Shown piece after piece: positions 3,417 through 29,639 of a DNA stretch of 32,000 nucleotides. Source of the DNA: Acaryochloris marina S15 (GTDB lineage: Bacteria; Cyanobacteriota; Cyanobacteriia; Thermosynechococcales; Thermosynechococcaceae); NCBI RefSeq assembly GCF_018336915.1, contig NZ_CP064923.1, positions 3,060,001-3,092,000 of the forward strand, written 5' to 3'. Positions within the stretch are counted from its first letter, which is position 1, and each line of letters opens with the position of its first letter. The translations under genes and the position numbers were made by a program. The notes beneath the pieces are model-generated. The model saw only the letters and a list, made by a program, of their open reading frames with translations, ran no database searches and was not told where the DNA came from.

Positions 3417-3869
3417 TTTTTGCTAACGTCGCTATTCTTTTTCGGGGTTTACTTTTTCTCGAACAGGATTAGCTTAACTTGAGTATCCAAGGATAATGTG
3501 GTCTTTGGATGCTTTTGTGTAAGTATCACCTGTACTTGGTCCATACTCAGCTCTGTTCCTAAGCAGCTTCTTCACCCAGTCTTTCTCAGGTTTCTCAGCA
3601 AACCCTCTAACTCTTCTCAGATTAGTTCTTTCATCTTTTCAGGAAAACATCATGGTTTTCTCAGAGTAAAACCCTATGATGCCGACAAAAGAATGGAGAG
3701 GAGTATATTAGATGGGATAGATTTCTAATACTGTTCATTACACAATTAAACGGGTTCTTTCGCCATTTCTTATTATCCTTTGCAAGCTTAAATTAGAGTT
3801 GTCACCCTCACAAAAGCTTAGGGGTACCATCGCAAGAAGACCGAGAACCGTTAAGTCCAAGGGGAGACT

Positions 3870-4928: not shown

Positions 4929-5023
4929 AATTTATCTGCATAATGGTTGCGTTGATTTTGACTGGTCTGGGAAAGAGTTTTTCGTTTCTATACCTATTTA
5001 ATCCTGAGGAGTTTTCGCAATCC

Positions 5024-14550: not shown

Positions 14551-15516
14551 AGACTGACGAACGCTGGCAAAAGGGCTGTTGTAGCATTTAGAGGCTATTT
14601 CAAAAGGCAAAGTTTGGCCGAAGCCAGAATCACTGATGCTATGCACCTCGACATGCAAGTGAGGGGCCGAACTCCAGCCAGAATTGCCGCTAAAGCCAAT
14701 CAGGTCTCCAGTCCTAACCCAATCATTCAACTTGATTGGGATTTTTCTTTTAAAGTTCTGCTGTAAATGAATGTAGGCAGAACGGACACCATTACTATGC
14801 TCTAGCCAGATAAAGTTAAACTTCTCCGCATTTCTACGTCTTCCCCCTTTGTCGGGATATTTATCTCGCACACCAATCACTCGCCCACCCTGCATGGCAT
14901 AAACAGGCATACCAATGGGAACGCCAAAATCATAGGCATATTTCATCCGGCCTTGATGGGTGCTGCCTCGGGTCCCCTGGCTGAGAAACCCTTTGCCCTG
15001 AAGAGGATGACAATACCCTTTCATAGCTGTACTGGGCAGATCAGTTAGGGGATGTGTTCCTTGACGATTATCAAACCACTGCTTTATCCCCAATCGCCTG
15101 GGAATAAATCTGGGCATGGAGGGAGGATCAGGAAAAGCACCACCGATGGCAGGAGCAGGTCGAGATGCCAATGATGAGCAGCCCGTTCCAAATCCACACA
15201 CCAATGACAAGCTGACCAGAGTGGCCGTTTGCTTAATGCCCTTGGGGAGACGATTTAGAATCTGTTGTGTTCGGTGGTGTTCTAAAGGGAAATCCCACCA
15301 ATTCTGCTTATTGCTAAATAATTTATAGAAATATTGATAATAATCAGCTTTAAATCCATTTTTCCCTTTTTTTAGGCGAGAAAAATGATTTTCTGGAAAA
15401 ATATCTTCTAAATAATTCTGATTTCTAAGCTTATTTAAGTGAGGAATAATGGGATTGAATATAGAGGTTAAAGAGGAAAATTCTCTTACCCAGCAAGGAA
15501 TCTTCTCATCAGACAT
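14545..15516 (-). CDS. M23-family (LytM/lysostaphin-type) metallopeptidase with a ~100-aa N-terminal region of unknown function and one hydrophobic segment
   Basis: C-terminal M23 motifs: YAYDFGVPIGMPVYA, SNGVRSAYIHL, GFSGNSGWSSAPHLHVEVH. The ATG at 15516 (MSDEK...) is taken, though a GTG at 15531 is also possible. The 5' third of the gene is markedly AT-rich. Confidence 0.82.
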   Translation of the reverse strand: MSDEKIPCWVREFSSLTSIFNPIIPHLNKLRNQNYLEDIFPENHFSRLKKGKNGFKADYYQYFYKLFSNKQNWWDFPLEHHRTQQILNRLPKGIKQTATLVSLSLVCGFGTGCSSLASRPAPAIGGAFPDPPSMPRFIPRRLGIKQWFDNRQGTHPLTDLPSTAMKGYCHPLQGKGFLSQGTRGSTHQGRMKYAYDFGVPIGMPVYAMQGGRVIGVRDKYPDKGGRRRNAEKFNFIWLEHSNGVRSAYIHLQQNFKRKIPIKLNDWVRTGDLIGFSGNSGWSSAPHLHVEVHSISDSGFGQTLPFEIASKCYNSPFASVRQSS

Positions 15517-16072
15517 AATACTTGAACACACTGGTTAGGCTGCCCAACTCTAAAATTGATCAAGATAATAATGTAGTAGCATTGAATACATTTATGCAAA
15601 TAAAATTTATTCTTCAAGTATTGATTGATTGTTTTTATATTAGAAAATGTTAATCATTTTTTATTGTTTCTAGACTTGCCTGAGGCAGCCAATTGAAGCT
15701 TTATAGGAATAAAATAACGCTCTGTTTTTTTGTTGATTCCTCAGTTGATAAGCGATTGCCATTTATCTTATCCCTGTCCCATTCTTAAGAACTTGGAGAT
15801 AGGGGGAGAAGTACAACCAGCTTCAAAATTCTCTCCCTTGGAATAATATATTTAGAGAGGTAGAGAGCTAAATTACTTACAGAGAAAGCTTTGTAGCCAA
15901 ATTATCTTTGCTTTTATTGCCCTGTTTGCGGGAGAAGGAAAGGCTTTGCCTTGGAAGACGAAAGCATTTTAAAAATCATTAATGCTATTAAAATCTGAGA
16001 AATATAAATTACTTCATTAGCCATTCTGAATGCAAAGAATGTTGTCTCTAAATACTATGGGCAAGGGAAAAT

Positions 16073-16252
16073 ATGCCTGGCATCATTGAAGGTTAGGTGG
16101 TAGCCGAAAAAGAGTCTGAATTGAAGGTTGATGCCGGAAGTCGCGATACTCTTTATACTGGGCTTGCTTTTTGCGATGGGGAAGAGAGAGTTGCTGAGAA
16201 ACGATGGTCGAAGCGAGTGCTGGTGGATGTGGCGATGCTCAGAAATCAGATA
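16073..16252 (+). pseudogene. Degenerate paralog of the 20224-20595 Trypco2-like gene, with an in-frame TAG and a 3' truncation
   Basis: ATG 16073 gives MPGIIEG, then TAG (16094-16096), then VVAEKESELKVDAGSRDTLYTGLAFCDGEERVAEKRWSKRVLVDVAMLRNQI. It aligns to MSDTIELW-VVAEAEDEVPAETGSRDGGYTGPSFGD...RKRVPVDVALLRKQM of the intact copy. The TAG sits where the intact copy has TGG (Trp). Similarity stops at about 16250, so the whole C-terminal half is missing. Confidence 0.6.
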
Positions 16253-16336
16253 AGGATAACGAACTTAAATAACACCGGAAAATATAGTTGAACACGGCTC
16301 TACCTCCTATCCTCCACAGCCTTAACACCACTGATG

Positions 16337-16491
16337 GCCCCCTAAATCCCCCACTGGTGGGGGACTTGTCTGCTCGACCCACACAGGATCTGTGACAGAG
16401 TTGAACCTCAACAACTCTAGAGATCTCACTGTCTAGATTCATTAGCCTATAGCTAGGCTCAAAGTCCCCCAGGATGGGGGATTTAGGGGGC
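16337..16491. repeat. MITE-like element: ~31-nt terminal inverted repeats, each holding a C5/G5 hairpin, around a ~94-bp core
   Basis: 16337-16367 is GCCCCCTAAATCCCCCACTGGTGGGGGACTT. The reverse complement of 16462-16491 is GCCCCCTAAATCCCCCATCCTGGGGGACTT. The two are identical apart from the hairpin loop. No target duplication is visible. Confidence 0.55.
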
Positions 16492-16647
16492 GATTGCAAA
16501 AGCTGATGTTGTCAAAAGAGACGGCAGAAATCTCGGTATTAATCAATTTTCATTCCTAACGGTGTTTTCCTCACCAAAAGATGAATACTTATCTTCTCCT
16601 TGAGTTAAACAGTCAAGAAATGGGGTTTGGATGAGTTTGGCTAGTTA

Positions 16648-16668
16648 AAGGCCCGGTTTGGGGCCTTC
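16648..16668 (+). terminator. Short GC-rich hairpin, either a terminator-like or a 5'-UTR structure, upstream of the caspase gene
   Basis: AAGGCCC (16648-16654) / GGGCCTT (16662-16668) with a 7-nt loop, followed by CTATAATTTTG, which also contains a TATAAT hexamer at 16670-16675. The role is ambiguous. Confidence 0.3.
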
Positions 16669-16787
16669 TATAATTTTGAATGATTCTTCTATAGATGTTG
16701 TCAGACAAGCTGCTTGATGTTGCTTGGGCAAGAAATCAGTTAGAAATATATGCGACATTAGAGAACAGTTGGAAGTTCTGCTAGGTA

Positions 16788-17474
16788 ATGGGTAAAAACT
16801 GGGCAATTGCCATTGGTATTAACGATTATCAAAATATGCGTCCGCTGAAATTTGCCCGTAAGGATGCAGAGGCGGTGTGTCAATTTTTTCAGGAGACCTT
16901 GCACTTCGATAAGGTGGATCTATTTGCTGATGGAGCAGAGCCCGTCCGCTATGCAGATAGCCCACCTCTTGCAGCAAAACCGACGGTTGGCAATTTAGAT
17001 AATTTTTTTCATGTTCGCTTTGAACGTCCATTCCTAGAACCGGGAGATAATCTGTGGTTTTTCTTTGCTGGACATGGCAAACGCCACAAGGGACGAGATT
17101 ATTTGATGCCGATTGATGGCAATCCCCGCCGTGTTGAACAGATGGGTATTGCCATTGATTATGTTGCTGAGCGACTGCGGCGCAGTGGGGCGGATAATGT
17201 CATTTTGATGATTGATGCCTGCCGCGGAGAGGATGATCGCGATGGCGGTGAAGGGGTGGGTCGTCAACAGCAGAAAGGGATTATTACGCTGTTTGCCTGT
17301 AGCCCTAATGAGCTGTCCTATGAAATTGAGGAGATAGAGCAAGGGGCGTTTACCCATACTTTGCTAGCCGGACTTCAGATCCAGGGAGCGGGAAATTGCG
17401 CGACGGTGGAACGCTTGAGCCAATATCTAAGGGCGAAGGTGCCCGAGGTTAATCATCGGTACAACACAGGGTAA
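16788..17474 (+). pseudogene. 5' fragment of an IS-disrupted orthocaspase (peptidase C14)-FGE-sulfatase gene; the caspase catalytic domain is complete
   Basis: KNWAIAIGINDYQ..., catalytic His in FFFAGHGKR (17073-17075), catalytic Cys in MIDACRGE (17220-17222). The frame runs into the IS and ends ...VNHRYN-TG*, the last 3 codons using IS sequence. Confidence 0.85.
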
Positions 17475-18796
17475 GCGCAAGAAAATCAAGCCTCTGAAAG
17501 GCTAGACTGTAAAGGAAGAGAAGCGCCTAGAACTTTGAGCATATACGCTTCATCCATGCTCGCCCGTTTTAGTTTTTGACGGGTACTTTTCTTAAAGGAC
17601 GTTTCTTGATTGAGAAGGTTGATGCTCCAGCGTCTCAGGATGGCCATGTTTTCCGGCGCATGTCCTGTGCGAATGCGGCTAGCATCTTCGCCAAAGGTCA
17701 CGTCTAAGACCCAGTGGAGTTGGTTCTCAATCGACCAATGCTGGCGGATGGCTTTGCCCAACTGCTGAGCATTTGGCGGTAGAGAACTGATATAAAACAT
17801 CACCTCATAGGTGGTTTTGTTCCACAGATGTCGGGTCCGAGCGACCTTGACGATGGTTTGCAAGCCCTTCCACTGCGCCTGCTTGTACAGAGGACCCATC
17901 TGTTGAAGGGACACGGCCCAAACTTGTCGTTTCTCGCGACGATGGTGCCCTGCTTCCACACGCGCATCATAGCTGTGCTCAATGCACTTAAACTCATTCG
18001 CTTCAGCCGTTTCAAACCATTGCTCAACCTGCTCAAACAGCGTGGGATGATTCTCCTTGAGGGCCAGCACATAGTCAGCCTCTTTAGCTTGAATGTGGCG
18101 GGCAATCTCGTGCTGAGTTCCCATTGCATCAATGGTAATAATGCACCCGGCAATGTCTAATAGCTCTAGCAGTGCTGGAATAGCGGTAATTTCGTTACTC
18201 TTGTCTGCAACTTTGACCTGTCCTAGAAATAACCGATACTCACTGGCCCAAGCACTGACCAGATGCAATGCGGATTGGTCTTGATTGCGATCATAGGAAC
18301 CTCTGAGTTGTTTGCCGTCAATCGGTATCACTTGAGCGCCGAGGGTTGTCACTACCTGATCCAACCAGTGATTGAAACTCCGCTCAAAAGCGGTGGGGCA
18401 AATACGCTCAAACACTCGTCGATAGGTGTCTGCTGTCGGTATCCCGGACGGTAGCCTCAGAAAACTCGACAACCAATCTTGATGGCTTAGACCATAGGTT
18501 TCAATGTCTTCCCACCCTTGTGCGCCACCTAAACTTGCCAATAGTCCAATCACGACGATGCTGACAAACGGATGCTGGACACCTTGGCCTCCACGTGGAT
18601 CAGGCAAATCTTCAAAACACTCGGACAATTGTTGATAAGCCTGATCGCAATCACTGGCAGGCAGGAGTGACGAGGATGAGTCAGTGGAAGCTGGTGAGGA
18701 AGGAGGCTTGCTGAATCCTGTAGCCATGGGGAAACCCTTTTAACAGAATGGAGTTCCATAGCATATTACAGCTTCATTTTTCTTGCGCTGCCCCTG
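17467..18796 (-). mobile_element. Complete ISAs1-family insertion sequence (1330 bp) inserted in the caspase-FGE gene
   Basis: Terminal inverted repeats are CAGGGTAAGCGCAAGAAAA (17467-) and the reverse complement of the right end, CAGGGGCAGCGCAAGAAAA (-18796). Perfect 10-bp direct repeat CGGTACAACA at 17457-17466 and 18797-18806. One transposase ORF. CAGGG ends and 8-10-bp duplications are ISAs1-family traits as I recall them. Confidence 0.88.
17486..18727 (-). CDS. ISAs1-family DDE transposase (H-repeat-associated-protein type)
   Basis: 413 aa, uninterrupted. The N-terminal block DLPDPRGGQGVQHPFVSIVVIGLLASLGGAQGWEDIETYG matches the DDE_Tnp_1-associated domain pattern. This is followed by IDGKQLRGS..., ITIDAMGTQ and IENQLHWVLDVTFGED. 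Confidence 0.9.
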   Translation of the reverse strand: MATGFSKPPSSPASTDSSSSLLPASDCDQAYQQLSECFEDLPDPRGGQGVQHPFVSIVVIGLLASLGGAQGWEDIETYGLSHQDWLSSFLRLPSGIPTADTYRRVFERICPTAFERSFNHWLDQVVTTLGAQVIPIDGKQLRGSYDRNQDQSALHLVSAWASEYRLFLGQVKVADKSNEITAIPALLELLDIAGCIITIDAMGTQHEIARHIQAKEADYVLALKENHPTLFEQVEQWFETAEANEFKCIEHSYDARVEAGHHRREKRQVWAVSLQQMGPLYKQAQWKGLQTIVKVARTRHLWNKTTYEVMFYISSLPPNAQQLGKAIRQHWSIENQLHWVLDVTFGEDASRIRTGHAPENMAILRRWSINLLNQETSFKKSTRQKLKRASMDEAYMLKVLGASLPLQSSLSEA

Positions 18797-18806
18797 CGGT
18801 ACAACA

Positions 18807-20072
18807 AGCCCTCTCAGACGCCCTATACACGGATAGAACCTGAGTCGAAGCTGCACTTTATTTTGCTGCCGGGGCAAGCTACGCTCCAAGATGTGGCAGC
18901 GATGAAAATTGATGCCCTGGAAGCTTGAAACAGAGAATGATTTGGATGGGGCTGAGCATCTGTGGACTCGGGTGTTAGCAGCTTCTCAGGCAGACACTCA
19001 AGCAATTAAGGGCTTGCAGCGGATTGCGGTCAAACGAGCGACGGGCCAGTCTCCCAGACCAACACCGACTCCAAGTCCAGAGACGTTAACTCCTCGGGCT
19101 GATGACTCTTCCCGAGAACCTGGGGTTAACCTCTCGTCAGCCCCCAAAGACAATCTGGCTGATAGCGAACCGTCTGATCCTCAACCCTCAAGGGTGACGT
19201 TTACGGTAGTCAAGGTGAATGCCCAAGGCGAGGTGATTGAGCAGCAAGAGCAACAGGCAGAACAAAGCTTGGTAATGTTGCCGGGAGAAGTCCCCCTATC
19301 TCTGGTTCGCATTCCCCAGGGGAAGTTTTGGATGGGTGCTCAGAAGAATGAAGAGGGTGCCGATGATGATGAATACCCTAGGCATCAGGTATCGGTTCCC
19401 TCTTTTTGGATGGGGCAATATCCGGTAACGCAACAGCAGTGGGAAGCTATTGCGGGACTGAGCAAAGTCAAGGTTGATTTGGATCCAGATTGTTCCAATT
19501 TCAAAGGAGAGACTTTACCCGTAGAGAAGGTGTCTTGGTATCAGGCGGCTGAATTTTGTGAACGCCTGTCCCGACATTCTGGCCGAGACTATCGGTTGCC
19601 GACTGAAGCCGAGTGGGAATATGCCTGTCGTGCGGGTACTGAAACCCCTTTCCATTTTGGGGCTACTCTAACTACCGACTTGGCGAATTATCGTGGGCAA
19701 GATTTGGAATATGAGGGAAAAACGTACCCCGGTAAATATGGTCAAGGTCCCTATGGGAAATTCCGCCACCGAACAACTCCAGTCATTCAGTTTGGAGGGG
19801 CGAATGCGTTTGGGTTATTTGACATGCATGGCAATGTTTGGGAATGGTGTCTGGATTATTGGCATGAGGATTATAAAAACGCTCCTACCGATGGGACTGC
19901 TTACAAAAATGATAATCATTATCACCTGCTGCGGGGCGGCTCCTGGCGCAACCATCCGAGGTACTGCCGCTCGGCCACGCGCTACAGGGGCGGGCCCGAC
20001 TTCCAGTACGGCAATGTCGGTTTTCGTGTCGTGTGTGTTTCGGCGAGTACTCTCCGTACCAGAACCGATTGA
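18807..20072 (+). pseudogene. 3' fragment of the disrupted caspase-FGE gene: linker, short helical repeat, Pro/Ser-rich spacer and a complete FGE-sulfatase (SUMF1-type) domain; carries an extra 1-nt frameshift near 18925
   Basis: From the IS junction the frame reads KPSQTPYTRIEPESKLHFILLPGQATLQDVAAMKIDALEA, then TGA at 18926-18928. The +1 frame continues ...ETENDLDGAEHLWTRVLAASQADTQAIKGLQRI.... FGE motifs present: RIPQGKFWMG, YPRHQVSVPSFWMGQYPVT, LPTEAEWEYACRAG, MHGNVWEWC, LLRGGSW, GFRVVCV. Confidence 0.85.
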
Positions 20073-20223
20073 TGGGAATCAATGGGGCGTGTGCTAGAAG
20101 AGTCCAGGTCTAGTCCAGAGATGCGGGTAACGGCATCCAAAAATCAAACCGGGCTGGATAGCTTCGTAGGTGAGCTGCCGAGCAGTTATTCAGTCCAACC
20201 AAACAATGTAAGCGGGGACTATT

Positions 20224-20595
20224 ATGTCAGACACAATTGAACTTTGGGTAGTAGCAGAAGCTGAGGATGAAGTGCCAGCGGAAACCGGAAGTCGCGACGG
20301 TGGCTATACCGGACCTAGTTTTGGCGATACGGTGGATCGGACAACAAGAAAGTTGATTTCCATGACTCGTAAACGAGTACCCGTGGATGTGGCTCTGCTC
20401 AGAAAACAGATGAATAGCATGATGCAGGTAGTGGATGAGCTATTCATCCAATCAGAAGTTCAGACCAAAATGCAGCTTGATGAAGTAGAGCTGAAAGTTG
20501 AAATTAATGCAGAAGGTCAGCTTAGTCTCGTAGGCAATGGCGGTAAGCTGGGGAATACGGGCGGAATTACCTTAAAATTTAGCCGTCCTAAGTAA
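20224..20595 (+). CDS. Small (123 aa) Trypco2/Pepco-like protein, the peptidase-effector-associated partner domain of predicted conflict systems
   Basis: Intact ORF 151 nt downstream of the caspase-FGE gene on the same strand. N-terminal beta strand IELWVVAEAEDE, a central helix, and a C-terminal beta-hairpin signature LDEVELKVEINAEGQLSLVGNGGKLGNTGGITLKFSRPK. This resembles remembered Trypco2-family sequences (...EVEVEFGV...AEAG...G...TVKLTW.R). A paralogous pseudogene lies at 16073-16252. Confidence 0.65.
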   Translation: MSDTIELWVVAEAEDEVPAETGSRDGGYTGPSFGDTVDRTTRKLISMTRKRVPVDVALLRKQMNSMMQVVDELFIQSEVQTKMQLDEVELKVEINAEGQLSLVGNGGKLGNTGGITLKFSRPK

Positions 20596-20941
20596 TTTCA
20601 AAAGTTTTGCTGATTTCCACAATCCTATCTCCCTGTCTTAGCTGTTCTAAAGCATTAGGTAAAGCAGTCATCAGCAATTGCCGTAAACTGCGATTTGTGA
20701 CATTCCCACAGGTTAGCCATATGACCTGAGGAGGCGTTCCTAAATGATCTACTAAATCAATGAAATCGCTATCCTTCGTCATAATCACAGCATTTTCAGT
20801 CCGTGCAGCTTCAAAAATTTCAATATCTTGAGCATCTCTTAGGGACAAATCTCGCAGAGCAGCAGCTTCTACATCATCAAAGGTCGCTGACAACCACTCA
20901 GCTAAAGTGGGTGGAAGTTGAGCATCTACCCAAATCTTCAT
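20588..20941 (-). CDS. DUF5615-family PIN-like (Mut7-C-type) putative toxin
   Basis: 117 aa. MKIWVDAQLPPTLAEWL...DAQDIEIFEAARTENAVIMTKDSDFIDL is the DUF5615 pattern. It overlaps the upstream DUF433 gene by 4 nt (ATGA). Confidence 0.85.
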   Translation of the reverse strand: MKIWVDAQLPPTLAEWLSATFDDVEAAALRDLSLRDAQDIEIFEAARTENAVIMTKDSDFIDLVDHLGTPPQVIWLTCGNVTNRSLRQLLMTALPNALEQLRQGDRIVEISKTFEIT

Positions 20942-21168
20942 GCGGTCAGTTGAGGAACGTCAGTCCGTCGTGCCGCAAACAGCAAGCAGGCTTGAATATC
21001 TGCCAACTCCAAATCAGGAAAGTCATCCAGAATCTCAGCAGTGGTGACATTTTCTGCCAACATTTCCAATATGTCGGAGACTCTAATTCGCATTCCTCGG
21101 ATACAAGGACGCCCCCCACACTGGCCCGGTACTTGGGTAATGCGAGTCAGTAGGTTAGTGGCATTCAT
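20938..21168 (-). CDS. DUF433-family putative antitoxin
   Basis: 76 aa. PGQCGGRPCIRGMRIRVSDILEMLAENVTTAEILDDFPDLELADIQACLLFA is the canonical DUF433 core. Confidence 0.88.
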   Translation of the reverse strand: MNATNLLTRITQVPGQCGGRPCIRGMRIRVSDILEMLAENVTTAEILDDFPDLELADIQACLLFAARRTDVPQLTA

Positions 21169-21265
21169 AGGACGATCTGCAAGCTGCTGGTCTCTATCTT
21201 AGCGAGTAATGTTTCTTACCCATCCGTTTGCAAGTTGCTATTGCCGAGTTTCAGAGCATTAGGTT

Positions 21266-22429
21266 TTAATTCAGGCCGATTCCCCTTAACCCCTTGACCA
21301 ATCGATTCAATCCTTCAGCTAGGGTAGCTTTATCCAAAGCTCCATAAGCAATCCGCAGATAACAGCCCGACTCCATGCCAAAGGCACTACCGGGAATCAC
21401 TGCCACCCCATATTTACGAATCAACTGCTCTACTAAAACCCGATCGGGCAAGTCTGTATCCACCTTAATCAACACATAAAATGCACCAGAGCTAGCAGGT
21501 GCTAACACCCTCTCAAGGGGCTGAAGTGCCTTCTGCACCAGATTCCGTTTCTCTGTAAGGGTCGCCAAATGCTGATGACAATACCCCTTCCCCACTTGCA
21601 GCGCACCAACTGCCGCATACTGAGACACCACAGGCGGGCAAATCAGTAATGTATCCTGAATTTTTTGCAGTGCCTCTTGCAAATGGCAAGGAATCACCAT
21701 ATAGCCGATCCGCCAACTGGCAAAGCCATAGGCCTTCGAGAGGGTAAATAGAGAAATTGTATGGGTTTGCTCAGGGTCAAAACGGCCCGGTGAAATATGC
21801 TCAACCTCGTCGTAGGTAAAGTACTCATAGGTCTCATCGCTGATGTGATAGAGATTGCGCTCCAAACACAACTGATTCACCACCTGCAAATCCGCTGCCG
21901 AATACACTGCCCCAGATGGATTATTCGGAGAAACCGTCACAATCGCCCGAGTCCGATCCGTAATCGCTGCTTCAATCTGATCGAGCTGGAGTTGATATTG
22001 CTGATCCGTGGGGATACAAACCGGCTGACCATTAGCGAGCCGAATCGCCATCTCATGGTTGAAGTAATACGGCGTTTGCAGAATCACCTGATCTCCTGGA
22101 TCAAGGATGGCGAGGACCGTATTCATAAACGCCATATTGCCCCCCGCCGTCACCATAATCTGGTCACGGCTAAAGCTCAACTGATTTTCAGCCCGTAGCT
22201 TCTGTGCGATCGCATCAACCAGCAGCGGGATTCCCTGCACCGATTGATAGAGATGCACTCCAGGATTTTGGTGAAACGTGGCTGCCTGGGCAAGAGCTTC
22301 TGGCGGCGGGCCATAAGAAACCACCCCCTGTCCTAGAGACAAGGTGCCAGGATGCTGGCGAATCAGATCGCCAATAATCGGGATAATGGGAGCCTGAACC
22401 GCTTCAACACGAGCCGATGGCCAGATCAT
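21266..22429 (-). CDS. PLP-dependent aminotransferase, class I/II (aspartate/aromatic aminotransferase-like)
   Basis: Fold-type I motifs: SPNNPSGAVY, and the PLP lysine in FTLSKAYGFASWRIGY. I prefer ATG 22429 (MIWPSARVEAV...), which overlaps the TGA of the upstream gene by 1 nt, over the track start 22471. Confidence 0.88.
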   Translation of the reverse strand: MIWPSARVEAVQAPIIPIIGDLIRQHPGTLSLGQGVVSYGPPPEALAQAATFHQNPGVHLYQSVQGIPLLVDAIAQKLRAENQLSFSRDQIMVTAGGNMAFMNTVLAILDPGDQVILQTPYYFNHEMAIRLANGQPVCIPTDQQYQLQLDQIEAAITDRTRAIVTVSPNNPSGAVYSAADLQVVNQLCLERNLYHISDETYEYFTYDEVEHISPGRFDPEQTHTISLFTLSKAYGFASWRIGYMVIPCHLQEALQKIQDTLLICPPVVSQYAAVGALQVGKGYCHQHLATLTEKRNLVQKALQPLERVLAPASSGAFYVLIKVDTDLPDRVLVEQLIRKYGVAVIPGSAFGMESGCYLRIAYGALDKATLAEGLNRLVKGLRGIGLN

Positions 22430-23097
22430 CAGACGGCAGCCGTACAGAGTTGCCCTAGAATTTGGCAGCATTCTGCCACCGACTTGCGATCAGTCATGGC
22501 TTGGACCAGGGCTTCGTAAGCATCCCAATTAGCCCGGATCATTTGTCGGGCTCGGTTCCCCGCCTGGCGCTCATGAACCTTCACATTCATCTTCAGTCGG
22601 TTTAAAGTTTGACGAAGCTGTTGCAGGTCATTCTTGCCCCCTTCTACGGCTTTGTAGACTAAGTCTTCGGCTACGCCACCCGCCATCCAAACCGTACAAT
22701 AGCGTTCGACTTGTTCTGCGGCACTCGTCTCAGAAAAATCGGCAGGCGTTTCAATACAAACGCCCCCTTGTCCGCCTTGTCCCTGCTGCAGAGCCTCCCA
22801 TGCCGTTAAGGTATAGCCCGTAATCGGCAGGTCCAGCAAATAAGCTGTTAAAAAATGTCCGGCTTCGTGATGAATGACCCGCTGGCGATATTGAGGAGAC
22901 AATCGGGCAAACCCATCTAGAAACAGTGTCATCCCTTTGCCCTGATACCCAAAGGTATCAGCAACTGCTAATCCTAGAACAATAGCGGCAAAGGTGAAGG
23001 GAATTTCTGGGGCAATGTTTAGTATGGGGCCCACCAGAATCGAACCGCTGAGAAGGGCAACGAAAAGTGCGATCGCATTAAGAGGGGTTTGATTCAT
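22429..23097 (-). CDS. Conserved membrane protein with an HEAGH zinc-metallopeptidase motif (FtsH-M41-peptidase-like, no AAA module)
   Basis: 222 aa. Two N-terminal hydrophobic helices, then VIHHEAGHFLTAYLL (HEXXH) and a C-terminal helical region. Confidence 0.75.
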   Translation of the reverse strand: MNQTPLNAIALFVALLSGSILVGPILNIAPEIPFTFAAIVLGLAVADTFGYQGKGMTLFLDGFARLSPQYRQRVIHHEAGHFLTAYLLDLPITGYTLTAWEALQQGQGGQGGVCIETPADFSETSAAEQVERYCTVWMAGGVAEDLVYKAVEGGKNDLQQLRQTLNRLKMNVKVHERQAGNRARQMIRANWDAYEALVQAMTDRKSVAECCQILGQLCTAAV

Positions 23098-23102
23098 GGG
23101 GG

Positions 23103-23846
23103 TTAAGATTTCAAGTTGCGGGCATTGTAGAAGGTCTCCAAGCTGTCTTTGTCACCGACATAGCGCCAGTGCCAGGGTTCATAACTAACCCCTTGGGAGT
23201 TCCCTTTTGGGAAGGATAACTCAAAGCTATACCGGGGTGCATTTTTTTGCAGCCAGTCGAAGGCCCGGGTCTCCTCAAAAGCGACATTCACATGGGCATC
23301 TGTCTGGGTGGCATCGCCAATATCCATGGCATACCCAGTATGATGTTCGCTCCGTCCGGGGGGAGCACTGACTTTAGCTCGCTGCTGTGCACCTTGGGCC
23401 CGCTCTTCTTTCACCTTAAAAAACAGGTAATCTTGATCGTCTACGGTCCGAAATCCAGATAATGCCTGTAGTTTTACGCCATCTGCTGCTGCCGCTGAGG
23501 ACATTTGCTTGTAGGCCCGAGCTGCAGCAGACCGTAGACGAATCCGGTTATCTGCTGTAATGGCTTGCAATTCGTTTTCCGGAGCGACTTTGTAGGAAAA
23601 ATGCCCTAAGGTCGTATCTGGAGTACTGGGAGTATCTGTTCCTCCAGTGGGAGATGTATTGGGTCCATTTTCTACCTTGCTTTGGGAGGGTTCAGGCTTA
23701 AAAAAGCCGATTGCAAATGCGGCTCCTACGGCAATCACTAACAGCCCGATGCAGCTGCCAATCAAAAGGGCAGGGTTACCTCGAGCAGGTGAAGATGCCG
23801 TTTGTGGAACGGTCTGCCGACGGGCCTCTGGAATATCGTCGTACAT
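23103..23846 (-). CDS. M15-family D-alanyl-D-alanine carboxypeptidase (VanY-like), membrane anchored
   Basis: 247 aa. N-terminal TM helix. SGFRTVDDQ, SEHHTGYAMDIGD and EPWHWRY match the VanY/M15B zinc-ligand pattern. Confidence 0.88.
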   Translation of the reverse strand: MYDDIPEARRQTVPQTASSPARGNPALLIGSCIGLLVIAVGAAFAIGFFKPEPSQSKVENGPNTSPTGGTDTPSTPDTTLGHFSYKVAPENELQAITADNRIRLRSAAARAYKQMSSAAAADGVKLQALSGFRTVDDQDYLFFKVKEERAQGAQQRAKVSAPPGRSEHHTGYAMDIGDATQTDAHVNVAFEETRAFDWLQKNAPRYSFELSFPKGNSQGVSYEPWHWRYVGDKDSLETFYNARNLKS

Positions 23847-24182
23847 AAAGACTCAAGCAAGAGAGATAAGCATCTTAATATTATTTCCTAAGGGACTAAT
23901 CTAAAAGGTCCGTTTTGATCACGAATCTGCCGTTACCCCCAGAAGATCCGTCTTAGTCTTCCTATCATAAAGTCCCTCACCCCTATCCCGCCAATTCTAC
24001 GATTGCCTTAAAATTCTTTGATGATGGGCAAAAACTAAGCTTATTGATGAATTTTGCCACCATAGGTTCCCTAACCTATAAGTGCAGGTTCACAAGGTAG
24101 GATGTTGAAGATTTTGCGTGATTCTCAATATGTGCGAGGATGCGATCGCTCTTGGGTATCATTCGGAGTGGTTTGATACCGT

Positions 24183-25799
24183 ATGGTCACCTCACTGATG
24201 GGAAATATGCCAATCGTAATCTCCTGCCGAAAAAAATTTTGGTTCAGTCCCGGCAGATTGAAACCTCTATCCCCACGGGCATTTCTCCTCAAGAGCTGTG
24301 GTTTGATGTTGGGGGTGATGGTGGCAGGTTGCGGGGATGCGATCGCAGCTCCAGAACAGCTGCAAACCCTTGATCGAGGGCATCGAATTCTGATCCAAAG
24401 GGGGCTGCAGCTGAACGCGCTGACCATTGGGTTCACCACCAAAGGAAAAGAAAATGATTCTGAGCTTTGGCAAAATTGGGAGGCTAGCCACTTTACTACC
24501 CTTGATGTGGGCGGCGAGCTATTGGCTCTACCCGAGTCGATCGCCGGCAAAAAGTCTTGGTCCACGTGGCGAGGCAATCCTAAAGATCCGACCCAAAGTC
24601 TGCCAGATCGACTCTTTCAGTCAGGGCAAATTAAGAATCTCGTCAGTTGGCAATATAAAGACGAACAAGATATTAGCGAAGAAAGTGAACTTCAAGAACT
24701 GGAAACCTGGATCAAGCATTACCGACCGCTACTCCCAAACACCCTCTTATATACCAATCAGCATGGTGATGAACGCTTTGGTGGTTTTGGCAGTACGCGT
24801 GACCTAACTATCCAGCGCTATATGCGTCGCATCCAGCCCGACTTGCTGATGCAAGATACCTATCCTTACGGGATTTGGAATGATTTGGGCAACCAAGGGG
24901 GGCGTCCCGCTCAGCTTTATTACGCTATGATCCGCTATCGCCGATTAGCCTTGGCTGGCAATGATGGTACAGGGCGTCGCCCCATTCCCTACGGATTATG
25001 GATTCAAACCTTCAAAGGGTCTGCTACTGGGGTAGGGACATGGACTCGCTTCCCATCTGAATCCGAACTGAGCCAGCAACAATTCGCAGCTCTGACACTG
25101 GGATTCAAACTCCTTAATGTCTTTACCTACAATGGCACCAGTGATGTTGGAGGGAAATTAAACGCTCCATTCTTCAATCAACCCTTCGGTAAACAACCCA
25201 CGCCAGCCTTCCAGCATATCGCCGAAATCAACCAGCAAAGCCTCAATTTAGGACCCACTTTGGTGAGATTACTCAGTACAGATGTGCGAATAATTCCCAG
25301 ACCCCCGACACTAACAGATTTAATCGCCCCTGATATCTCTCGTTGGGATACCAAGGCTGACCCTTATATGACTCGACTAGAAGTCAAAAACCTTGGAACT
25401 TTATATGGTGGGCGCAATGGCGATGTGCTGGTGGGGTATTTTAAGCCTTTACGAGAAAGCTTTGACGGTCCAGCCACCAATCAGCAATATTTTATGCTCA
25501 CGAATGGACTAGCAGGTAAGAAACATTCGATCGAGCAAACGCGCCAACAACTCACCGTCGAGTTTGATTTTGGCGAGAGCGAGATCACGGGGTTACAACG
25601 CCTCAATCGCAAAACCGGCAAAGTTGAACCCATTCAGGCCGGATGGACTGAGGAAGTGGCTCCGGGACTGAATTCTCGGTTTGATGCGGTTAGCGATCGC
25701 AAATACCGTCTCACCTTAATTCTCGACGGCGGGACAGGAGATCTATTTAAATTTGATACAGGTGCGACGTTTGTGGGGCAACAACAGACTCAGCTTTAG
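24183..25799 (+). CDS. Uncharacterised secreted protein, probable lipoprotein
   Basis: Long ORF with consistent coding character. Lipobox-like MVAG|C in ...RAFLLKSCGLMLGVMVAGCGDA. The true start is uncertain: ATG 24183/24198/24207, or TTG 24258, which would give a textbook 25-aa lipoprotein signal. No family recognised. Confidence 0.75.
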   Translation: MVTSLMGNMPIVISCRKKFWFSPGRLKPLSPRAFLLKSCGLMLGVMVAGCGDAIAAPEQLQTLDRGHRILIQRGLQLNALTIGFTTKGKENDSELWQNWEASHFTTLDVGGELLALPESIAGKKSWSTWRGNPKDPTQSLPDRLFQSGQIKNLVSWQYKDEQDISEESELQELETWIKHYRPLLPNTLLYTNQHGDERFGGFGSTRDLTIQRYMRRIQPDLLMQDTYPYGIWNDLGNQGGRPAQLYYAMIRYRRLALAGNDGTGRRPIPYGLWIQTFKGSATGVGTWTRFPSESELSQQQFAALTLGFKLLNVFTYNGTSDVGGKLNAPFFNQPFGKQPTPAFQHIAEINQQSLNLGPTLVRLLSTDVRIIPRPPTLTDLIAPDISRWDTKADPYMTRLEVKNLGTLYGGRNGDVLVGYFKPLRESFDGPATNQQYFMLTNGLAGKKHSIEQTRQQLTVEFDFGESEITGLQRLNRKTGKVEPIQAGWTEEVAPGLNSRFDAVSDRKYRLTLILDGGTGDLFKFDTGATFVGQQQTQL

Positions 25800-25819
25800 G
25801 CAGCCGTTTTCGTGAAGGA

Positions 25820-27046
25820 CTATTCAGGATCAACCCAACGACCATCAGATTTGATGAGGTTGATTAATTCTTCAACGCCTTCAGTCTCTGGTACCTTTTT
25901 CACTTCTTCTCTACCCCGATAAAGTGAAATGTAGCCAGGCTGTTTACCGACATAGCCGTAGTCTGCATCAGCCATCTCACCGGGACCATTGACGATACAG
26001 CCCATAACGGCAATATCTAGACCTGTAAGGTGGTTCGTTGCGGATCGCACTTGATGTAGAACATCTTCCAAGTTGAAAAGAGTTCGTCCACAGGAGGGAC
26101 AAGCCACATATTCCACCATGGTTTTGCGAAGGCCCAAGGCTTGCAAAATACTGTAGCAAACGGGAATTTCTTTTTCAGGAGATTCTGTCAGCGAAACTCG
26201 GAGCGTATCTCCAATCCCATCTGCCAACAGGGTGGCAATCCCGGCTGTAGATTTGATCCGTCCATATTCGCCATCCCCAGCTTCCGTCACGCCTAAATGC
26301 AGGGGGTAATCCATTCCCAGCGCATCCATACGCTGGGCCATCAGACGATAGGCAGCTAGCATCACGGGCACCCGAGACGCTTTCATGGAGATGACGAGAT
26401 TGTTGAAATTTAAGGACTGGCAGATGCGAATAAACTCTAGTGCTGATTCCACCATGCCTTCGGGAGTATCCCCGTAGGTGAATAGCATCCGCTCTGCGAG
26501 GGAGCCGTGGTTGACCCCAATGCGCATGGCCTTGTTTTGGTCTCGCAAGGAAATCACGAGAGGCTCCAGGGTTTCGCGAATTTTATCGCCAATATCTTCA
26601 AATTCGGATTGCGAAAATTCTGTCCGATCATCCTTGGCTTTCTCAAACACATACAGGCCCGGGTTGATCCGCACTTTATCAACATGCTTGGCCACCTCTA
26701 GGGCAATTTTCATGCCGTTATGGTGCACATCTGCAACGAGGGGGACGGTCTGGTAGGTTGCCGTTAATTTTTCCCTGATTGTGGCTAGGGCTTTGGCATG
26801 GGCCATGCTCGGCACGGTCACCCGAACAATTTCACAGCCCAACTCATGCAGACGACGGATGGCAGCTACGGAGCCATCAATGTCTAGGGTGTCTTCATTG
26901 ATCATGGACTGAACCACCACAGGGTGGTTTCCACCAATCATCACATCCCCAACGGGAACAGGGCGAGTCTTGCGTCGAATAATTGAAGTTGTGACTGGGG
27001 TGGACTGCTCGTCAGTTTCTTTGACAGAGGTTGATAAAGTCTGCAT
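25820..27046 (-). CDS. ispG: 4-hydroxy-3-methylbut-2-en-1-yl diphosphate synthase (MEP pathway)
   Basis: 408 aa. [23 protein letters not shown], and the [4Fe-4S] Cys ligands in VACPSCGRT...GCIVNGPGE. Confidence 0.95.
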
Positions 27047-27235
27047 GGTGAAAGGGTTAAGGCCACGATAAGGAAACTCAAGGAGCAGTATCGCTCCACC
27101 CCCTAGCTTGCCATAGATCGATCCCCGTGTGGCGGTCGATTCATAGGGAATCCTGCTCTCTTATGGATGCTCCCCCTCACGGATAGTGGATTAGTATTGA
27201 TCCACTATGAAGACTTCCTATCTGAGAGAACGGTC

Positions 27236-27940
27236 CTATTCAACTACTGTGGAGCCTTGAGCACAGACGATTGTAGAGCCTGTTAGCTTAGGAGTACCTG
27301 GAGGAGTTTTAGTGGGCTCATTCGATTTGCAAATGGCGGAAACGGGAATGCTTGCGTCTTGAGCATAGACCGCACCTGTGTAGCTGAAGATACCGTTTTT
27401 TTTTGCGATCGCAGCCACGATTGCCTTATTCTCATTGGCCTCTAAAACCTGCAGTTGAAATTCACCGCTATCTTTGGGGGAATCAGATTCCAATTTCTGC
27501 AAATTCGTGGTGAATCGGCCTGTTACTAACTTCTCAGCCTGTTGCGATTGCAGCACATTATCCAAATAGGTTTGCCCCAAATCTTGTTTCGCAACAGCTC
27601 CTTTTTTTTGCACTTCTTTGTGGACTTTGCTTACCAGCTTTTTGTCTGATTTCGACAGCTCCACCTTAGGTGCAGGTGAGAGCTTCACCTTGGCTTTAGG
27701 AGGTGCAGATACAGGCTTTTGAACCGCTGGGCTAGTTTGAGAGGTTGGTTTTGCTGCCGTGGTGGGCTGAGGAGACACCTTAGGGGAAGGTTGAGGAGAC
27801 TGGGAATTCGGCGAACTCTCAGGCACCGGAGACTTTACATTAGGTTTTGGAGATTGCTGCACGGTCTTAGATCCTGAACAGCTAATCAGTAAGCTACTCG
27901 CAATCACACATAACCAATATCTGTTTCGAAGCCAAGCCAT
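27236..27940 (-). CDS. Pro/Ser-rich secreted lipoprotein; the C-terminal domain resembles cyanobacterial type IV pilin-like G/H-family proteins
   Basis: I prefer ATG 27940 (MAWLRNRYWLCVIASSLLISC, lipobox LISC) over the track start 28048. It has a long SP/QP-rich spacer and a C-terminal ...YLDNVLQSQQAEKLVTGRFTTNLQKLE... segment. The function call is tentative. Confidence 0.7.
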   Translation of the reverse strand: MAWLRNRYWLCVIASSLLISCSGSKTVQQSPKPNVKSPVPESSPNSQSPQPSPKVSPQPTTAAKPTSQTSPAVQKPVSAPPKAKVKLSPAPKVELSKSDKKLVSKVHKEVQKKGAVAKQDLGQTYLDNVLQSQQAEKLVTGRFTTNLQKLESDSPKDSGEFQLQVLEANENKAIVAAIAKKNGIFSYTGAVYAQDASIPVSAICKSNEPTKTPPGTPKLTGSTIVCAQGSTVVE

Positions 27941-28302
27941 AGTCTTAAAATATTTAGAAAAATTACATCTGTCGTTCTCTAAGTTGAGTCTTCCCCAAAA
28001 AGATAAATAAGGACACAGCTTCAAAACACATGGCCTAGGCAATGCCACAGCGGAACACTGTTTATCCTCTTGTTAAAGATTGATATTATTTTCACCAGTT
28101 ATTCAGTTTGAGTTTTCATAAGTTGTAGCAGCTAACACTGTTTTCTCTTCTGATTTAGCGAAGGATAAAAGCAACTTGTTTTACTCCTAAGCTCAAGTTC
28201 TGCTTGATGTTTTGTCCTTCGCTACTTTCGTAGAACTATGAGGGCATTCTAACCATCAGCTTGATGTGTAGTTGATTCGATAGGGATGTCCCACCCTTGA
28301 TC

Positions 28303-29292
28303 ATGACCTCACCCTTTTTTCCCGTCACCTACTCAACCCTTGCTTGTGATGCTTTGGTATCTAGGATCCTGCCTCATTTTCAGATCAAAGATATTACCCA
28401 TTGCAAGTTATGGCACCGTGGTTTGAGTGATGTCTACTTAGTTGAAACTGCGGTTCAATCATTTGTGCTCAGGGTGTCCCATGCCCATTGGCGAACCAAA
28501 TCAGAAATTGATTTTGAGTTGGAATTATTGGTTTTTTTGCAACAAAGGGACATCCCGGTTGCCCGTCCATTACACACCCTAGACGGTCAACTATCTATCG
28601 AGATCGCAGCACCTGAAGGAAAACGGTATGCGGCTTTATTTGATTTTGCACCAGGCCAGGTTCCCTTAGGAGATTTGAGTCATACCCAAGGCCAAAAACT
28701 AGGAGAAACCATCGGTCGTCTCCATCAGGTGGCCACCGATTTTCACAGTCAGGCCCATCGACAGCCTTTAACCCTTGATTATTTATTGGACGATTCCTTA
28801 GATGCGATCGCACCCTTTCTCCAACATCGTCCCCAAGATCGTGAGTACCTAATCGAAATCATTTCCGAAATTAAGAACAAATTGCAAGGCATGCCCAAAG
28901 ACCCGCCTTTTTGGAGCGTATGCTGGGGCGATCCCCATAGTGGCAATGTTCATTTCACCGACGACAATCAAGTCACCTTATTTGACTTTGATCAATGTGG
29001 CTACGGTTGGCGGGCCTTCGAACTAGCTAAGTTTTTACATGTGTCGGCCCGCACTGGCATGCAAAAGAAAGTGCGCAACTCTTTTCTAGAGGGCTATCAA
29101 ACCGTTCAAGCGGTTACACCCAAGGAAGAAGACTCGATTCAACCGTTTTCCCAAGCGGCCCACATTTGGCAATGGTCTATTGGGTTGAAATCAGCCAAGG
29201 TTCACGACAATTGCCGTTTAGACGATAGTTATTTCAGTCAGCGAATTCAACAGCTCAAAATGCTGTCTTCCCCCGAATGGGAGCTGTTCTAG
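28303..29292 (+). CDS. Phosphotransferase of the APH / choline-kinase / homoserine-kinase-II superfamily
   Basis: Brenner-type catalytic loop GDPHSGNVHF and metal-binding LFDFDQCGYG. The ATG at 28303 is two codons inside the TTG-initiated track ORF. Confidence 0.85.
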   Translation: MTSPFFPVTYSTLACDALVSRILPHFQIKDITHCKLWHRGLSDVYLVETAVQSFVLRVSHAHWRTKSEIDFELELLVFLQQRDIPVARPLHTLDGQLSIEIAAPEGKRYAALFDFAPGQVPLGDLSHTQGQKLGETIGRLHQVATDFHSQAHRQPLTLDYLLDDSLDAIAPFLQHRPQDREYLIEIISEIKNKLQGMPKDPPFWSVCWGDPHSGNVHFTDDNQVTLFDFDQCGYGWRAFELAKFLHVSARTGMQKKVRNSFLEGYQTVQAVTPKEEDSIQPFSQAAHIWQWSIGLKSAKVHDNCRLDDSYFSQRIQQLKMLSSPEWELF

Positions 29293-29639
29293 CCCACTTT
29301 GACGATTTTTCGATCCACTGCCTTGAGATAGCTGCGGCAGTTGGGACAGCGTTTCAAGGTTGGCGGTACGGATTGGACAACACGACACTTAGGGCAAGGA
29401 CCTCTGGCAACGGACCATTGTAAAAAGACCCCCAATCCCGATAACACACCCCATAAAGGGATGACATACCATAGCCAGGGTCTAGGATATTGAGGAATCA
29501 GCACCAAGACAATACCAATGATTAGGGTCATGACGCTGGACCAGCCGACGCCGCCGACAATGCGCATGGAATTCGTAAAGTCCTGATCCTCTGGAGCAGA
29601 AGCTTGATAAGAGGTTGAGGAAGAAGCACGCTTGGCCAT
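29289..29639 (-). CDS. Small membrane protein with a C-terminal CxxC...CxxC zinc ribbon
   Basis: 116 aa. Two hydrophobic helices, then CPKCRVVQSVPPTLKRCPNC. Its 3' end overlaps the convergent phosphotransferase gene by 4 nt. Confidence 0.7.
   Translation of the reverse strand: MAKRASSSTSYQASAPEDQDFTNSMRIVGGVGWSSVMTLIIGIVLVLIPQYPRPWLWYVIPLWGVLSGLGVFLQWSVARGPCPKCRVVQSVPPTLKRCPNCRSYLKAVDRKIVKVG

Follow-up and report, generated by a model that had tools for sequence, protein, structure and literature searches.

The question raised by this locus of Acaryochloris marina S15 is what system was once formed by a caspase gene, now split by an insertion sequence (IS), and the small intact Pepco gene that follows it, and how much of that system is left. 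The window analysed is the whole 32-kb stretch (32,000 nucleotides; NZ_CP064923.1, positions 3,060,001 to 3,092,000 of the forward strand); coordinates are in its own numbering, and labels of the form Lnnn denote loci in the related sequences with which it was compared. With a probability of about 0.8, the locus is the decayed remnant, on the chromosome, of a protease-effector module already known from cyanobacteria, consisting of a sensor-protease, a diversity-generating retroelement (DGR) and Pepco. In the intact module, an orthocaspase would be joined through a helical segment and a Pro/Ser linker to a C-type-lectin domain of the FGE type. The DGR, with Avd, a reverse transcriptase (RT), a template repeat (TR) and a structured RNA, would rewrite the ligand-binding tip of the lectin domain, and Pepco would pre-assemble as a beta-barrel that becomes a membrane pore once it is cut by the protease. 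By homology, binding of an invader-derived ligand to the lectin domain may activate the caspase, which would then cleave Pepco, and the resulting pore would kill the cell. In the window, the DGR cassette appears to have been lost and an ISAs1 element has since split the caspase from its sensor, with a one-nucleotide insertion as the second break.

An earlier reading of these letters (the original prediction) had seen in them a candidate minimal conflict module. As a new conflict system it does not stand, because Pepco is a Pfam family, NCBI names members of it, and a preprint of 2025 gives the mechanism of one member and lists FGE-fused partners. The locus nevertheless offers three points of use to specialists: a series of decay states, a junction left by DGR loss together with its RNA, and the activation of Pepcos that have no tail. 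Its parts are as follows.

16073-16252, plus strand: Pepco pseudogene, N-terminal half only, from a tblastn match to the intact Pepco
16334-16494, no strand assigned: palindromic repeat element resembling a miniature inverted-repeat transposable element (MITE), with 20-nt inverted repeats, directly 3' of the truncated Pepco pseudogene
16788-17466, plus strand: orthocaspase-FGE gene, 5' part with the complete Peptidase_C14 domain (Pfam PF00656)
17467-18796, minus strand: ISAs1-family insertion sequence, with its transposase gene at 17486-18727 on the minus strand
18807-18925, plus strand: protease gene after the IS, residues ~227-266, start of the helical segment (tblastn with L004)
18925-18926, plus strand: frameshift, one extra T (DNA alignment with L004 and A. 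marina)
18927-20072, plus strand: protease gene, 3' part, with helical segment, Pro/Ser-rich linker and FGE-sulfatase domain (Pfam PF03781)
19927-20050, plus strand: hybrid DGR variable repeat (VR), from adenine-site differences against the A. marina TR
20059-20196, plus strand: structured RNA element, from covariation, overlapping the last codons of the FGE gene
20224-20595, plus strand: intact Pepco gene, 123 aa, predicted latent pore-forming effector (Pfam PF24393)
20588-21168, minus strand: DUF5615/PIN-like gene (117 aa) and DUF433 gene (76 aa), a toxin-antitoxin-like pair

The protease gene and its Pepco partner

The 228-aa open reading frame (ORF) at 16788-17474 matches Peptidase_C14 in a Pfam scan (PF00656, E 3.1e-22, profile positions 2-212 of 233) and carries the His-Cys dyad, with His in FFFAGHG and Cys in IDACRG, so that the caspase domain read from the letters alone is borne out. 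This disrupted frame terminates at 17474, inside the IS. The product of 16788-17466 is 88% identical to residues 1-226 of an intact 651-aa orthologue (L004) that has a Pepco gene directly 3' of it, and a tblastn search with the same orthologue recovers three segments: 16788-17465 in frame 3, 18797-18925 in frame 2 (91% identical to residues 224-266) and 18927-20069 in frame 3. The original prediction had taken 18807-20072 as a continuation of the same protein. This holds for its content, since the linker and a complete FGE-sulfatase domain are there (PF03781, E 2.4e-53, in the ORF 18909-20072), but not for its frame, which is interrupted by the IS at 17467-18796 and by an extra T at 18925/18926. 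The IS as the sole lesion was rejected: removing it with one copy of the target duplication (17467-18806) leaves the frame unrestored, and it is this failure that revealed the second lesion, where the window has GCTTGA against GC-TGA in L004 and A. marina. With both lesions repaired in silico, a protein of 647 aa is obtained, the length that had been foreseen.

The IS encodes a 413-aa transposase on the minus strand, with DDE_Tnp_1_assoc and DDE_Tnp_1 domains (Pfam) and a match to NCBIfam transpos_ISAs1 (NF033564, E 4.6e-123). Its terminal inverted repeats are imperfect, and the 10-bp target-site duplication that flanks it, CGGTACAACA (17457-17466 and 18797-18806), is perfect. The empty site is preserved in a related contig, L087, whose positions 3-956 match window 16513-17466 and whose positions 947-6517 match 18797-24400, the two alignment blocks overlapping by exactly the 10 duplicated bases. 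Three plasmids of Acaryochloris sp. 'Moss Beach' carry the same IS, at nine places in all, with identities of 99.1-99.3% for the best copy of each plasmid; the element is thus active and multicopy, and its insertion recent. It sits just 3' of the catalytic domain, so that the caspase domain is severed from its sensor with its 228-aa ORF left open. The ratio of nonsynonymous to synonymous substitution rates (dN/dS) of the caspase domain is 0.07-0.11 against orthologues, no higher than amongst the intact orthologues themselves, which argues that the damage is young relative to the divergence of the lineages.

The intact 123-aa ORF at 20224-20595 is confirmed. It had been likened to Trypco2 or Pepco, and only the second name is upheld: residues 7-121 match Pepco (PF24393) over the full profile (1-112 of 112, E 4.2e-29, 101.7 bits against a cutoff of 27), and the Pfam scan gave neither a Trypco2 match nor any other family with an E-value below 0.03. 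More than 120 cyanobacterial homologues all carry PF24393, the nearest named ones being those of A. marina (84%), where NCBI uses the name 'Pepco domain-containing protein'. A profile search of 1.84 billion representative proteins yielded 585 Pepco clusters at E <= 0.001; PADLOC 2023 and NCBIfam hold no Pepco model, and a sequence search of the PDB with the Pepco profile gave chance-level matches only. The AlphaFold2 (AF2) monomer model is of low confidence (mean predicted local distance difference test, pLDDT, 53) and has a helix at 56-81 and a beta-hairpin at 87-120 (strands 87-94 and 114-120). The strand at 86-95 alternates between hydrophobic and charged residues (z 2.45); the amphipathicity of the helix, by hydrophobic moment, is not significant (z 0.58). 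In every comparison amongst the window, L004, A. marina L001 and L008, the dN/dS of Pepco is 0.08-0.14. Two family members have unusual architectures: a 2553-aa protein (P0184) contains 12 separate Pepco-like stretches, and a 299-aa protein (P0132) is a fusion with the Pepco core at its C-terminus.

A decayed paralogue of the small gene, noted earlier immediately upstream of the caspase gene, is also there. By tblastn (E 1e-10), the segment 16073-16252 aligns with residues 1-63 of the intact Pepco at 49% identity; an in-frame TAG replaces the Trp8 codon, the C-terminal half is missing, and the frame continues through unrelated sequence as far as a stop at 16291. An orthologous pseudogene with the identical stop lies in two A. 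marina genomes (L001 1898-2080 and L002 830-1012), and the pseudogene is therefore old.

Is the pairing of Pepco with a caspase peculiar to this locus? It was surveyed in 80 loci from different cyanobacterial species, probed with caspase, FGE, RT and Avd sequences. Adequate flanks, meaning at least 4 kb upstream and 1.5 kb downstream of Pepco, were present in 46 loci, and in 37 of these Pepco has a same-strand caspase(-FGE) neighbour, on both sides in seven cases. The nine exceptions are orphan Pepcos among unrelated genes. Two arrangements recur: a caspase-FGE gene 5-100 nt 3' of Pepco (26 of the 67 loci with enough downstream sequence) and a caspase-FGE gene upstream of Pepco (23 of the 51 with enough upstream sequence); in the window, 151 nt separate the caspase-FGE stop from Pepco. 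The proposal that the two genes form a conserved unit is thus sustained on each count: the small protein has its Pepco match, its homologues are enriched beside these proteases, and the intact orthologues of the protease gene at L004 and L001 have a Pepco neighbour. The predicted lack of an adjacent STAND, AAA/MoxR or vWA gene was found as well, with no MoxR, STAND, vWA or other NTPase domain in window ORFs of at least 110 aa nor in the Pfam-annotated genes of L001-L005, and no NTPase gene in the 32 kb. Two orphan Pepcos have neighbours that may be recorded here: one (L078 6804-7751) adjoins a CAP12/Pycsar-type TIR effector gene, and another (L024 435-7604) adjoins a 2389-aa ORF without a Pfam match.

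The roles of the two proteins can be read from published work. Kaur et al. (2020) described Trypco1 and Trypco2 as small proteins that co-occur with trypsin-like peptidases in conflict systems (PMC7159879), and Trypco genes with peptidases were later found to adjoin DGRs in multicellular bacteria, where Trypco was called an adapter domain (PMC10907252). Evans et al. (bioRxiv, November 2025) equate Pepco with the Trypco group, count it amongst the commonest effectors associated with proteases, with Actinobacteria and cyanobacteria as its main hosts, and list FGE-fused proteases amongst its partners (PMC12642450). In their experiments, the Pepco of Streptomyces subrutilus (SsPepco) forms 9-10-mer beta-barrels resistant to sodium dodecyl sulphate, and the adjacent trypsin-type SsAvs4 cuts it after Ile97, removing a 2 kDa C-terminal tail; SsPepco truncated at the cleavage site kills Escherichia coli alone, deletion of Pepco abolishes toxicity, and phage portal proteins elicit a response from Pepco-protease pairs that are fused to Avs-type sensors (PMC12642450). 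By analogy with these Streptomyces experiments, Pepco would be the effector and the adjacent caspase its activator. The original prediction had the FGE domain as sensor, which agrees with what is set out below, but its casting of the caspase as effector and of the small protein as regulator is reversed by the Pepco experiments, and its belief that no such pair had been studied is superseded by the same preprint (PMC12642450), which examined a Pepco-protease pair and lists FGE-fused partners.

A close comparison is the A. marina locus, represented by L001 (AP026075) and L002/L007 (MBIC11017, CP000828 / NC_009925). It shares with the window its neighbourhood, including the FTR1 and M23 peptidase genes upstream, the upstream Pepco pseudogene, the caspase-FGE gene, with a caspase domain 93% identical at the protein level, and Pepco; it differs in that Avd, RT and TR are kept and the protease gene is intact, whereas the window has the IS and the frameshift. 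The Streptomyces module is alike in having a small Pepco beside a sensor-fused protease, and a core helix and beta-hairpin with alternating hydrophobic and charged residues may be common to both Pepcos. However, the protease there is trypsin-like rather than an orthocaspase, a lectin-fold sensor is here fused directly to the protease without a STAND NTPase, and the window Pepco is tail-less, with a disordered acidic N-terminal extension, and lies in an inactivated copy. The ternary systems of Kaur et al. (PMC7159879) resemble the locus in the small protein beside a peptidase, the frequent presence of DGRs and the enrichment in multicellular bacteria, but the window locus has no vWA, MoxR or STAND gene, and the partners differ: alpha/beta-hydrolases for caspases and trypsins for Trypco in that scheme, a caspase for Pepco here. 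Similarly, most cyanobacterial DGR loci are tied to MoxR/vWA ternary systems (PMC10907252), of which the window has none. In bacterial gasdermin systems (Johnson et al. 2022, as discussed in PMC12642450), a neighbouring caspase-like protease likewise frees a latent pore-former by a single cut, with cell death as the outcome; the fold there is unrelated, and gasdermin forms oligomers only once it has been cut, while Pepco is reported to assemble beforehand.

The retroelement footprint and its structured RNA

The FGE-type domain of the protease gene is predicted to be a binder of C-type-lectin fold and not an FGE enzyme, because one of the two catalytic cysteines is replaced. Aligned to human FGE chains, it has Asn at the position of the first catalytic cysteine (residue 336) and Cys at the second, where we take the active-site cysteines of human FGE to be Cys336 and Cys341. 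The position of the missing cysteine falls within the DGR-variable segment, and the closest solved structures by sequence include PvdO and the Treponema DGR variable protein TvpA (2y3c). The loss of the catalytic cysteine, the identity of the C-terminal part with a DGR variable repeat and the relationship to TvpA together support a role as ligand sensor. This agrees with the earlier description of cyanobacterial DGR targets with orthocaspase N-termini (Vallota-Eastman 2020, PMC7517822) and with the argument that the C-type-lectin DGR targets of multicellular bacteria are antigen sensors (Dore 2024, PMC10907252); those proteins likewise have the VR in a C-terminal FGE/C-type-lectin domain and an orthocaspase N-terminus (PMC7517822, PMC10907252).

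The order of genes in the A. marina locus is FTR1-M23-caspase-FGE-Avd-RT-TR-Pepco, with an Avd of the bAvd type and a short FGE-like ORF also lying between RT and Pepco. The 121-nt repeats at the end of caspase-FGE and after RT have 14 differences, and all 14 are at adenines of the second copy, which is the signature of a VR/TR pair. Against this TR, the window sequence 19927-20050 differs at 15 of 29 adenine sites and at 3 of 92 others (Fisher p 8e-9). The pattern reads as the footprint of past mutagenesis and not as part of a functioning VR/TR pair: Pfam scans of the 32 kb recovered neither RT nor Avd, every tblastn match to the A. marina RT or Avd had E > 0.4, and there is no TR or direct repeat within the window or L004.

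The manner of the loss may be read from the flanks. In the alignment, both the window and the DGR-less L004 have the A. marina VR flank 5' of the repeat and the TR flank 3' of it, through to Pepco. The spacer from stop codon to Pepco is of nearly the same length in A. marina (152 nt), and the last codons of the window gene, ASTLRTRTD*, match those of the TR-side ORF of A. marina, ASTLRTRTE*. A 1.6-kb interval from VR to TR, with Avd and RT, appears to have been lost, leaving a junction of the kind expected from VR x TR recombination. The two-gene minimal form of the original prediction is thus not what the locus was, there being a DGR between the two genes in A. marina and a deletion scar at its place in the window. 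A full-length 627-aa caspase-FGE frame in an unrelated genus (L038) runs directly into the RNA element described below, with no RT or Avd nearby, so the same scar arose elsewhere. DGR paralogues with remnant TR-VR homology but without RT have been noted in multicellular bacteria (PMC7517822, PMC10907252); in the literature searched, no description was found of this precise hybrid junction, in which a VR is fused to a TR flank with a structured RNA. Similarity in this region is mosaic, since L088 is 95% identical to the window at the nucleotide level over the housekeeping genes 21260-28503 and 84% identical over the FGE-end/Pepco/toxin-antitoxin segment 19820-21260, which suggests exchange or fast evolution of the locus.

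Why should the spacer have been kept? Its first 118 nt after the FGE stop are 91.5-92.4% identical amongst the window, L004 and A. marina, as against 82-86% for the Pepco coding DNA, and the same segment is conserved beside the TR in distant cyanobacterial DGRs. RNAalifold gives a fold of 30 pairs in four helices, and in 17 of these the pairing is preserved although both partners have changed. Such pairs number 8.6 +/- 1.8 in column shuffles (none of 500 reaching 17) and 1-5 when the partners are slid. A covariance model built from seven loci scores window 20059-20196 at 147 bits and matches 18 of the 85 sources searched; there is no Rfam match at E <= 1. In cyanobacterial DGRs the element, of about 137 nt, adjoins the 3' end of the TR; copies lie at the following places.

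L007: 7835-7972
L043: 7726-7861
L042: 570-704
L028: 250-385
L033: 1287-1422
L011: 1615-1754
L066: 373-508
L038: 7758-7893
L071: 10382-10519

Where both were mapped, the element lies within about 30 nt of the TR or of the FGE repeat end, its distance from Pepco varies from 28 to 861 nt, and in L071 it stands 3' of a caspase-FGE gene with no Pepco after it. It thus appears to be a component of the DGR and not of Pepco. The DGR of the Bordetella phage needs an RNA region adjacent to the TR to prime reverse transcription, and by its position the cyanobacterial element presumably corresponds to this priming region. The DGR of the window lineage appears to have been lost through a clean VR-TR junction that retained a covarying RNA element absent from Rfam.

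Recurrent decay, activation of Pepco and rival readings

The window is one of several states in which the module has come apart. L087, which is syntenic and free of the IS and whose Pepco is 92% identical, has an in-frame nonsense codon of its own in the FGE domain (FWMG*YPV), and decay of this gene is therefore recurrent. At the same chromosomal locus in another Acaryochloris genome (L008), FTR1, M23, Pepco and the downstream aminotransferase gene are present and caspase-FGE is absent. An origin of this orphan Pepco by recombination between the two Pepco copies was considered and set aside: homology to the window sets in at exactly the Pepco start codon, the N-terminus resembles that of the intact copy, and by blastn the upstream flank has no similarity to the window. 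In Adonisia (L005 and L026), only fragments of FGE and caspase genes flank Pepco. The DGR decays too: in MBIC11017 the RT is split by an IS, with a DDE_Tnp_1 transposase between RT fragments of 73 and 281 aa (L002 3556-5682), whereas it is intact, with 352 aa, in AP026075 (L001), and six loci (L017, L018, L020, L030, L037 and L040) have an Avd-like gene between the FGE gene and Pepco and no detectable RT. Pepco is intact in L087, L008, Adonisia, MBIC11017 and the six Avd-only loci. Acaryochloris and its relatives thus provide a natural series, from an intact module with DGR through a DGR-less one to proteases hit by an IS, stopped by a nonsense codon or absent, with Pepco always kept. The window Pepco itself appears to have no working protease partner in cis.

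Several points weigh against the reading of the locus as a decayed defence module. The caspase domain could still be produced as a free protease, given that its 228-aa ORF is intact, and an error of sequencing might in principle account for the single-base frameshift. The variable repeats of the four DGR-less relatives (window, L087, L088 and L004) differ from one another mainly at TR-adenine sites, the window and L004 at 17 of 29 such sites and 4 of 92 others, and one ancestral deletion with a frozen VR would not predict such differences; independent deletions in each lineage, diversification in trans or deletion by retrohoming itself may account for them. The only Pepco pair studied is that of Streptomyces with the trypsin-type Avs4, so that cleavage of Pepco by an orthocaspase is a prediction by analogy, and defence is a role that we infer. 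Finally, the C-terminal tail of about 20 residues, of the kind that is cut from SsPepco, is absent from the window Pepco and its aligned cyanobacterial relatives.

This last point bears on how a caspase-linked Pepco would be activated. The window Pepco ends four residues past the core motif LKF, and all 40 aligned cyanobacterial homologues stop within a few residues of it, the exceptions being a truncated sequence and a divergent one; only a minority of distant members have tails, of 20-45 residues. The cleavage site of SsPepco is thus not transferable to Pepcos without the activating tail of this only studied member. Instead, some 50 residues extend the N-terminus of the cyanobacterial Pepcos; this extension is acidic and disordered, with pLDDT below 50 in the AF2 monomer model, and has Gly22, Arg24, Arg49 and Arg51 invariant. 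As orthocaspases favour Arg or Lys at the P1 position (PMC8283722), an N-terminal cut at an invariant arginine is plausible.

The rival that survives best, a possibility to be taken seriously though not the favoured one, is that the locus is alive, its Pepco being cut in trans by a paralogous caspase-FGE protein encoded elsewhere and its hybrid repeat perhaps still diversified by a distant DGR. The low dN/dS of Pepco, including that of the window and of L008, which has no caspase-FGE, is what such service would give, as are the differences at TR-adenine sites amongst DGR-less relatives and the conservation of the 118-nt segment beyond that of Pepco coding DNA. Moreover, a second protease beside Pepco is a known arrangement, seen in the seven loci with proteases on both sides and in the closest relative of the window, L089, whose Pepco is 98% identical (96% nucleotide identity over window 20018-20591). 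There, a second caspase-FGE paralogue (L089 602-2416), 47-51% identical to the first and with the same VR framework at its C-terminus (LRGGSW..PR.CRSA…VGFRVVCV), starts 21 nt after Pepco. Homology between L089 and the window ends at the Pepco stop codon, the window having the DUF5615/DUF433 pair there instead. Against this rival, no second protease, RT or Avd lies in the 32 kb. Pairwise dN/dS cannot reveal constraint on a terminal branch, and recent loss explains the conservation equally well. The flank 3' of the window repeat is also of the TR type, not of the VR type as in A. marina. In the Bordetella phage model, it is the sequence at the 3' end of the VR that marks the target.

A joint account of the junction and of activation, which we regard as rather speculative, would have caspase-linked Pepcos gated at the N-terminus, by a cut at Arg24 or Arg49/Arg51, and the junction of FGE gene, TR flank and RNA formed as a regular product of self-deletion by retrohoming or else serviced in trans by a DGR. 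Either origin of the junction would explain why four DGR-less relatives with differing adenine variants share it and why it recurs in an unrelated genus.

It is unlikely that the module serves a purpose other than defence, such as signal transduction or programmed cell death during development, for which the diversified lectin domain would detect a ligand from the cell itself or from its surroundings. Orthocaspase-type DGR targets of cyanobacteria were first read as regulatory or signalling proteins (PMC7517822), and the window locus is surrounded by housekeeping genes, with no obvious defence island. On the other side stand the response of Avs-type Pepco-protease pairs to phage portal proteins (PMC12642450), the argument for antigen sensing by DGR lectin targets (PMC10907252), and the frequent decay and presence or absence of the module amongst close strains, which would be typical of defence genes.

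Still less probable is the model of the original prediction, an unstudied, NTPase-less minimal module with the caspase as effector and a Trypco2-like adaptor or regulator. The conserved adjacency and the lack of a nearby NTPase gene suit it, as do the first description of Trypco as partner of trypsin-like peptidases (PMC7159879) and its later naming as an adapter domain (PMC10907252), but it is at odds with the loss of toxicity on deletion of the Streptomyces Pepco, the killing by truncated Pepco alone and the beta-barrels (PMC12642450), and with FGE-fused proteases being already listed as Pepco partners and the module having had a third component, the DGR. That the gene is intact in the organism and its disruptions are artefacts of assembly or sequencing is hardly credible. 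The frameshift does involve no more than one base of a TT dinucleotide, but the clean inverted repeats of the IS, the 10-bp target duplication and the matching empty site seen in a relative are what real transposition leaves behind, and L087 has its independent nonsense codon in the same gene.

Neighbouring genes and minor observations

An Rfam scan of 15500-21300 gave nothing meaningful, and promoter and terminator scans did not rise above shuffled expectation. The repeat element at 16334-16494 is bounded by inverted repeats at 16334-16353 and 16475-16494 (20 nt, 95% complementary; ATGGCCCCCTAAATCCCCCA and TGGGGGATTTAGGGGGCGAT), and between the aligned blocks around it the window is about 305 bp longer than A. 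marina. It looks like a cyanobacterial MITE.

The DUF5615/DUF433 pair is convergent to Pepco, with an overlap of 8 nt between the end of its DUF5615 gene and the Pepco stop codon. It is also found in the syntenic L008, L087 and L088, and a Pfam-annotated pair lies near Pepco in Adonisia L005. As a conserved partner of Pepco it was rejected, since DNA and protein probes placed it beside Pepco only in the syntenic Acaryochloris loci and gave scattered DUF433 matches elsewhere; it is probably a chance neighbour.

Further along the window, the 116-aa ORF at 29289-29639 (minus strand) and the 538-aa ORF at 24183-25799 (plus strand) have no Pfam match at E <= 0.001. The latter is seemingly conserved in L088, where a 536-aa gene lies at the same position.

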